Assembly (NCBI GenBank): GCA_951406725.2
Contig: OX597834.1
Location: 496,001 to 560,000, forward strand
Source of the DNA: Octopus vulgaris
Lineage: Eukaryota
Length of the DNA stretch: 64,000 nt
Direction: 5' to 3'
Part shown: positions 16,569-16,830 of the stretch, one piece after another
Position numbering within the stretch: position 1 is the first letter of the stretch
How the letters are laid out: every line of letters begins with the position of its first letter
Program-made: the position numbers and the translations under genes
The notes under the pieces: model-generated
The model's database searches: none
What the model saw: only the letters and a program-made list of their open reading frames with translations
Told to the model about the DNA's origin: nothing

Positions 16569-16830
16569 TAATATAAGGGATATTAGCCAACCGAATATGG
16601 CTAGGGACAGGGCAGGGTGGTGGGGGTGTCACTGTTGCATTTAGCCCCAGGCGAACATCAACGTCACCAGATAGGCCGACGCCATCACGGCGTCCTCTAT
16701 CTTGCAAAGGGAGATCACTCACCAAGAAGCCGATACCACACACGGACCTAGGTTTCAAGGTGTGTTGCCTATTATCAACGTGTGGTAGGCATCGCTTCTC
16801 GATGAACGACCAACTTTGCAAGATACATAT
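16569..16830 (-). mobile_element. Hammerhead-bearing non-coding retroelement (retrozyme/pLTR-like), copy 1
   Basis: Imperfect long hairpin 16698-16825 (TATCTTGCAAAG...CTTTGCAAGATA) capped by a hammerhead fold. Same architecture and flanking motifs as 29306-29560. Confidence 0.7.
16739..16784 (-). ncRNA. Minimal type I hammerhead ribozyme, U3-A8 core variant, weak helix II
   Basis: Minus strand: CACACG-TTGATAA-TAGGC AACAC ACCTT-GAA-ACCTAGGT-C-CGTGTG. Confidence 0.6.

Follow-up and report, generated by a model that had tools for sequence, protein, structure and literature searches.

Loosely kept pairing of hammerhead core positions 3 and 8 in a young Octopus vulgaris repeat family with Penelope-like insertion anatomy

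The stretch of Octopus vulgaris DNA analysed here (64,000 nucleotides, referred to as the window) contains a hammerhead motif with U at core position 3 and A at position 8, and a second motif in the same window has C3 and G8. The locus thus raises the question of whether the two changes form a selected compensatory variant of the tertiary 3-8 pair, as a sequence-only reading of this DNA had proposed, or mark the decay of a dead copy, and what kind of element carries the motif.

A descriptor scan of the 64-kb window gave exactly two hammerhead matches, with cores starting at 16778 and 29507 (Table 1). The former, on the minus strand, combines a U3-A8 core with an 8-nt palindromic helix III; it has the core nucleotides and the three helices in type I order, the deviations being the 3/8 variant and the unpaired 10.1/11.1. 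The features that the sequence-only reading had described between 16698 and 16825 are all present, on the minus strand, and these two positions are the ends of the enclosing long stem, whose folding energy was equalled by 0 of 200 shuffles. The palindromic helix III and the UUGAUAA core, as against CUGAUGA in the 29.5-kb copy, were likewise both seen in the scan. The two window elements, assigned to families A and B, agree in 164 of 279 aligned columns (59%). An Rfam scan of the window had no hammerhead among the 150 listed of its 266 matches, nearly all of them microsatellite-driven miRNA matches; a partial U4 snRNA match at 58551-58619 (+) scored 37 bits, under the Rfam gathering score. The U3-A8 hammerhead of the window is a known core variant, already published, and is not new in itself.

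Table 1. Coordinates of the hammerhead parts and of the elements carrying them in the window
Feature	Position	Strand	Basis
Helix I, 5' strand CACACG	16784-16779	-	descriptor match
Helix I, 3' strand CGUGUG	16744-16739	-	descriptor match
Core UUGAUAA = U3-U4-G5-A6-U7-A8-A9 (U3 = 16778, A8 = 16773)	16778-16772	-	descriptor match
Helix II and loop: 3 pairs AGG/CCU, flanked by U.U (10.1/11.1) and C.A	16757..16771	-	
GAAA (G12-A13-A14-A15.1)	16756-16753	-	descriptor match
Helix III, self-complementary ACCUAGGU	16753-16746	-	descriptor match
C17; predicted cut between 16745 and 16744	16745	-	standard hammerhead numbering on descriptor match
Long stem around hammerhead	16698..16825	-	-60.8 kcal/mol, z = -8.6
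Full unit, non-coding retrozyme-like repeat, family A subfamily A1, 354 bp (family about 355)	16570..16923	-	copies on many contigs
Inverted 5'-truncated copy	16924..17122	+	97% identical inverted arm
45-bp PLE-type tail, repeating the unit's first 45 bases	17123..17167	+	100% match to 16879-16923
(TA)n target, left	16551..16569	.	
(TA)n target, right	17167..17204	.	
Sister family B copy, 5'-truncated, C3-G8, core CUGAUGA from 29507, palindrome ACUCGAGU	29310..29594	-	

The unit around the hammerhead, with its inverted partial copy and tail, had not been mentioned in the sequence-only reading. There is no long ORF at the locus, and the small non-coding unit with its type I hammerhead occurs in head-to-tail repeats, the hammerhead-to-hammerhead spacing being 350-364 bp at 43 fetched loci (duplicates included), with 354-357 bp for A1 and a family B unit of 352 bp. 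Among the best 40 of 1474 candidates, A1 copies are 96-99% identical across many contigs of the 2.8-Gb genome, and family B is likewise repeated (best 40 of 2099 candidates scored). The usual number of units is 1-3; ten U3-A8 hammerheads are arrayed at about 355-bp spacing at G000:C4:13620930-13624168. Head-to-tail joints were also seen in contigs from runs merely guessed to be RNA and from one run of unknown kind, and genomic tandems yield an identical joint.

The insertions have the layout of Penelope-like elements (PLEs), namely partial tandems, an inverted 5'-truncated copy, a tail of 30-45 bp and microsatellite targets, and the 45-bp tail is present at most fetched loci. After removal of 7 duplicate loci, 99 inverted insertions were counted among the fetched loci: 77 have exactly one tailed end, 7 have none, one has both and 14 were unclassified, so that 77 of the 85 classifiable insertions follow a one-tail rule (p about 3e-15). 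The predicted cut site is not enriched for 5' truncations (9 of 203 lie within 5 nt of it, against 6.9 expected), and the template was therefore likely a circle or an uncut multimer. The inverted copy in the window begins inside loop II and so is without core positions 3-9, leaving one complete hammerhead at the locus; as read-through RNA would, in addition, form a 200-bp duplex in its 3' half, this copy is itself probably a poor source of new ones. The window element is a young copy of the family of about 355 bp, likely a mobile element, and carries a real hammerhead motif, predicted to be self-cutting, in a retrozyme-like unit that is probably a PLE passenger. Elsewhere in the window, at 19610-20044 (-), a short frame contains a reverse-transcriptase-like YADD stretch, which we take to be probably a LINE fragment.

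At the 30 loci closest to the window element by similarity every full-core copy has its U3-A8 core. Since the most similar copies are biased toward the query, degenerate patterns were used instead. A pattern that combined the family A flanks with N at both 3 and 8 found 212 copies, and the 100 listed first comprise, by hand count, 52 U3-A8 and 48 U3-G8 with no C3; the 100 listed first of the 168 matches to a second family A pattern are all U3. A C3 pattern gave 253 matches, and the 100 listed first are all C3-G8 with family B loops. The sequence-only reading would have been overturned by a subfamily consensus of CUGAUGA with U3 and A8 as private mutations, and the family A copies, U3 in all of the first 100 listed of 212, are of another kind.

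Under one broad pattern the genome contains 1903 related hammerheads, of which 1159 are C3-G8 (by subtraction), 364 U3-G8, 358 U3-A8 and 22 C3-A8; since the flanks and the other core bases were fixed in the pattern, these state counts are minimum values. The reversed-pattern control was 0 for the total and for each state-specific count. About 236 C3-A8 matches would be expected under independent sites. The 22 observed are scattered over many families, no two of them being one unit apart; 10 were fetched, and these, at 80-92% similarity to the closest relatives in the sample, are old. A decay control, G5A, gave 12 matches, a number of the same order, 10 of them on the C3 background; C3-A8 occurs at about twice this control rate on C3 copies (p = 0.049), slightly above plain decay, and CpG decay at positions 7-8 may be the cause of the excess. 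A8 thus spreads on the U3 background only, which fits selection for the 3-8 pair. The compensated pair of the sequence-only reading therefore survives insofar as the pair is kept, C3-A8 being just 22 of 1903, and fails in its strict form, in which spreading U3 lineages would have A8 and be without G8, since U3-G8 (364) is found along with U3-A8 (358). Tandem loci do not separate the two states (6 of 32 for U3-A8, 11 of 30 for U3-G8; p = 0.16). The 3-8 pair is kept and its compensation is loose, the U3.G8 wobble lineages being as common and as young as those with U3-A8.

Pairing was further followed in a structural sample of 34 representatives at <95% identity, in which the invariance of core columns is partly built in, as the search pattern fixed those positions. 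Positions 3 and 8 are pairable in all 34 (C-G 21, U-A 8, U.G 5). The helix I pairs are kept in 32-34 of 33-34 representatives, with double changes at two pairs, and the three pairs of helix II in 33, 32 and 30 of 33, with double changes at one inner pair; 10.1-11.1 is paired in 15 of 33 only. A short helix II is typical across entire lineages and is thus a lineage trait and not decay, which removes the ground for the earlier caveat that a helix II of about 3 bp might mark a dead copy. The central pair of the helix III palindrome is T-A, C-G, A-T or G-C and is pairable in 31 of 33 representatives, and a second palindrome, ACCAUGGU, arose within family A, where 21 of 147 copies with a hammerhead have it (duplicates kept). 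This change of the palindromes by double changes supports cleavage as a dimer. For helix III of the U3-A8 hammerhead in the window the predicted dimer duplex has -11.4 kcal/mol and the monomer hairpin +2.0, the representatives' dimer duplexes are predicted at -7 to -11 kcal/mol with unfavourable monomer hairpins, and in none of 36 copies is the monomer minimum-energy fold the active one; on predicted energies, the self-complementary helix III with an unstable monomer is that of dimeric PLE-type hammerheads. At ten loci (L065, L070-L074, L076, L081, L085 and L088), on the U3-G8 background only among the loci fetched, both central palindrome bases are exchanged together with self-complementarity kept. 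Many family B copies (L032-L060) owe the self-complementarity of helix III to G.U pairs alone, and 10.1 varies between A, U and G. The proposal that U3-A8 is a selected compensatory variant gains from the double changes in helices I, II and III across lineages, and it loses by U3-G8 subfamilies that are at least as young.

The history of the two positions was traced on copies from all 66 loci behind the first 100 broad-pattern matches (C3-G8 40, U3-A8 14, U3-G8 12) together with the family A loci. In a tree of 81 profile-aligned copies, built with positions 3 and 8 masked and three short rows dropped and rooted at the midpoint only, there are two changes at position 3 and six at position 8. 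By our own count on this tree, five of the changes at position 8 fall in the U3 clade, which makes up 39% of the tree length, and none in the C3 part, whereas the free position 7 changes four and six times, respectively. The tree-based odds, modest and post hoc, are 0.0033 for six changes and, by our own arithmetic, 0.009 for five and 0.02 without row L121, an odd C3-G8 row nested among U3-A8 rows that accounts for one of the five. U3-G8 rows do not form one clade (rejected by the AU test). A young U3-G8 clade of 13 rows (99/85) lies within a set of U3-A8 rows whose own sister group has U3-A8 too, which makes reversion from the compensated state probable; one U3-G8 lineage thus likely reverted from U3-A8, judging from the sequences, and recombination between subfamilies may be an alternative source of the nested clade. 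The median distance to the own majority sequence is 0.4-0.6% in the U3-G8 subfamilies, 0.8-1.1% in A1 and 0.8% in the window subgroup; U3-G8 occurs in tandem arrays and as identical copies at separate loci, and U3-A8 is fixed in A1 and in one older lineage. Because the copies are related and the sampled tree has only about two changes at position 3, the two-by-two table of states overstates the support. The tree supports a kept 3-8 pair, though from few independent events.

A candidate for the enzyme moving these units is present in the genome, which has an intact autonomous PLE with reverse transcriptase (RT) and GIY-YIG domains, with many 781-aa copies whose 3' ends are anchored in (TA)n. 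This PLE has a CX4CxxC linker, a kind tied to Neptune elements (Craig 2021, PMC8557442), and its own hammerhead-like motif, matched at 19 of 20 loci, is U3-A8 with a 6-nt palindrome and a weak helix I. Its young loci (L210-L229, e.g., G000:C17:42762400-42767900) have an upstream open region, perhaps a second ORF, and short tandem repeats after the ORF. The 355-bp unit gave no significant DNA match, beyond neighbouring insertions, to 20 fetched PLE loci and 30 GIY-YIG loci (best 150 of 6136 GIY-YIG candidates scored), and the ends of the 781-aa PLE have no significant DNA similarity to it; the PLE therefore remains a candidate partner only. A more distant relative of the unit at L198:25-180 (profile E 5e-8), which lies outside the reach of the search patterns, combines U3-A8 with the 6-nt palindrome seen in the motif of the autonomous PLE, and is a possible link between the two.

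The reading that we consider probable is that of a young family of about 355 bp, likely non-autonomous and moved by a Penelope-like RT. In this view the type I hammerhead is predicted to require a dimer for cutting, and every large lineage keeps positions 3 and 8 able to pair (C-G, U-A or U.G), likely via selection for a working but slow core. The reading starts from the observed repeat family, with its tandem units, (TA)n targets, inverted tailed copies, genome-wide counts and covariation. In tandem transcripts two hammerheads would pair through the palindromic helix III, and the RNA would be cut to unit length and circularise, a step from tandem RNA to circles that is proposed by analogy with mussel retrozymes; monomer RNA would fold into an inactive rod. 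The PLE protein would nick both (TA)n strands and copy circular or uncut multimeric RNA, with the RT starting at two internal sites about 45 nt apart, one per strand, so as to give inverted insertions with one tailed end. The change of C3 to U would have opened two tolerated states at position 8, and C3-A8, a mismatch, would arise by decay and not spread.

Decay of the window copy itself, with U3 and A8 as two private transitions in a dead hammerhead, can be given practically no credence: the short helix II speaks for it and nothing further, and the core is common to hundreds of copies (358 of the 1903 matches are U3-A8), is identical in every full-core copy of the 30 closest-match loci, and sits in a subgroup lying just 0.8% from its majority sequence. 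The chance decay that the sequence-only reading had allowed for is thereby refuted. Strict compensation, in which C3-G8 and U3-A8 would function and U3-G8 would be no more than a short-lived or dead intermediate, is very improbable. It could draw on the fixation of U3-A8 in A1 and in an older lineage, on the U3-A8 motif matched at 19 of 20 loci of the 781-aa PLE, and on published natural U3-A8 covariation (PMC3088659, PMC4209133), but is largely refuted by the 364 U3-G8 matches, and the tandem arrays and identical copies at separate loci, the AU test against a single U3-G8 clade and the young clade nested among U3-A8 rows are equally at odds with it.

A more serious challenge is that the U3 lineages may no longer need cleavage, the fold being retained as a signal for binding or packaging by the PLE protein, with position 8 drifting after the loss of C3 and copies spreading from uncut tandem transcripts. 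That position 8 flips repeatedly only once C3 had become U, that the U3-G8 subfamilies are the youngest, that truncations are not piled up at the cut site, that hammerhead mutants were without effect on PLE insertion in vitro (PMC11167929), and that hammerheads have been suggested to parasitize PLEs (Craig 2021, PMC8557442) would all agree with it. We nevertheless regard it as unlikely, as the rest of the core and the palindrome are preserved: among 268 full-core fetched copies G5 is kept in 267, A9 in 267, A6 in 268 and U4 in 265, and the palindrome is maintained by double changes within the U3 clade. Position 8 is only A or G in the 100 first listed of the 212 N-pattern matches, which transition bias would give as well, and in 268 of 268 full-core copies, mostly found by patterns requiring a purine.

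Returning to a slow but working core, the superfamily might be read further as a natural fitness map of the tertiary 3-8 pair, on which young spreading lineages toggle between U-A and U.G, even reverting, and C.A never spreads; we put this forward tentatively and with some doubt. If true, it would mean selection for a throttled, probably protein-assisted ribozyme and not a fast one, and the one-tail rule would show a PLE enzyme pair priming both strands from two constant positions in a circular passenger RNA. PLE and retrozyme hammerheads may or may not need to cut: they are only weakly active in vitro, and in the sole purified system insertion did not depend on cleavage. The useful part of the present data is the family history and not the U3-A8 variant: near-identical young subfamilies that differ only by U-A or U.G at 3-8, beside a C-G sister, are ready natural constructs.

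Natural U3-A8 covariation has been published (Perreault 2011, PMC3088659); the core covariation is alike, and the covariants described there are isolated examples without a family history. In PLE hammerheads, U3-A8 was reported for about 1,300 Schistosoma mansoni matches, with low activity even when dimeric (Cervera and de la Pena 2014, PMC4209133). Family A resembles them in its palindromic helix III, the dimer model and U3-A8, and the opposite-strand pairs 100-700 bp apart of that study are like the window layout; it differs in a longer, 8-nt palindrome, a shorter helix II and the lack of an ORF. One Saccoglossus row of their Fig. S3 has a U3-G8 core, for which reason U3-G8 is not claimed as new; no discussion of U3-G8 lineages was found in the accessible portions of that paper, and literature searches did not find the term, with an earlier description possible, e.g., Lunse 2017. 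In one mutational scan the 3-8 pair was rescued only by a G:C swap, which makes a simple functional interpretation harder.

In mussels, retrozymes of 350-390 bp give rise to circular RNAs and cleave themselves (Cervera and de la Pena 2020, PMC7229834). Like metazoan non-LTR retrozymes, family A has a non-coding unit of about 350 bp with a type I hammerhead, arranged head to tail and strongly self-paired, in a genome with autonomous PLEs; unlike the mussel elements, it consists mostly of dispersed (TA)n insertions of 1-3 units with PLE-type inversions and tails, is known here from sequence alone, and has a non-canonical core with U3 and no G10.1-C11.1 pair. Partial tandems, an inverted 5'-truncated copy, an often one-sided tail and a microsatellite bias have been described for PLEs (Craig 2021, PMC8557442), and the Anolis Poseidon PLE protein extends both target strands, with two internal start sites defining the tail, in a purified system in which hammerhead mutants had no effect on insertion (Frangieh 2024, PMC11167929). 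Family A shares with these the AT-rich targets, the inverted 5'-truncated copies and the often one-sided tail; it differs from Poseidon in being a non-coding passenger, in a one-tail rule that has been counted (77 of 85) and in a partner enzyme that is a candidate only. In a preprint, Li et al. (2026; 10.64898/2026.07.22.740005) argued that animal retrozymes are non-autonomous PLE derivatives; the conclusion agrees with ours, its basis there being co-occurrence and pLTR similarity, and the words 'tail' and 'core' are absent from its text. The tails and inversions of family A connect a retrozyme-like RNA to the Penelope machinery by insertion anatomy, beyond co-occurrence.
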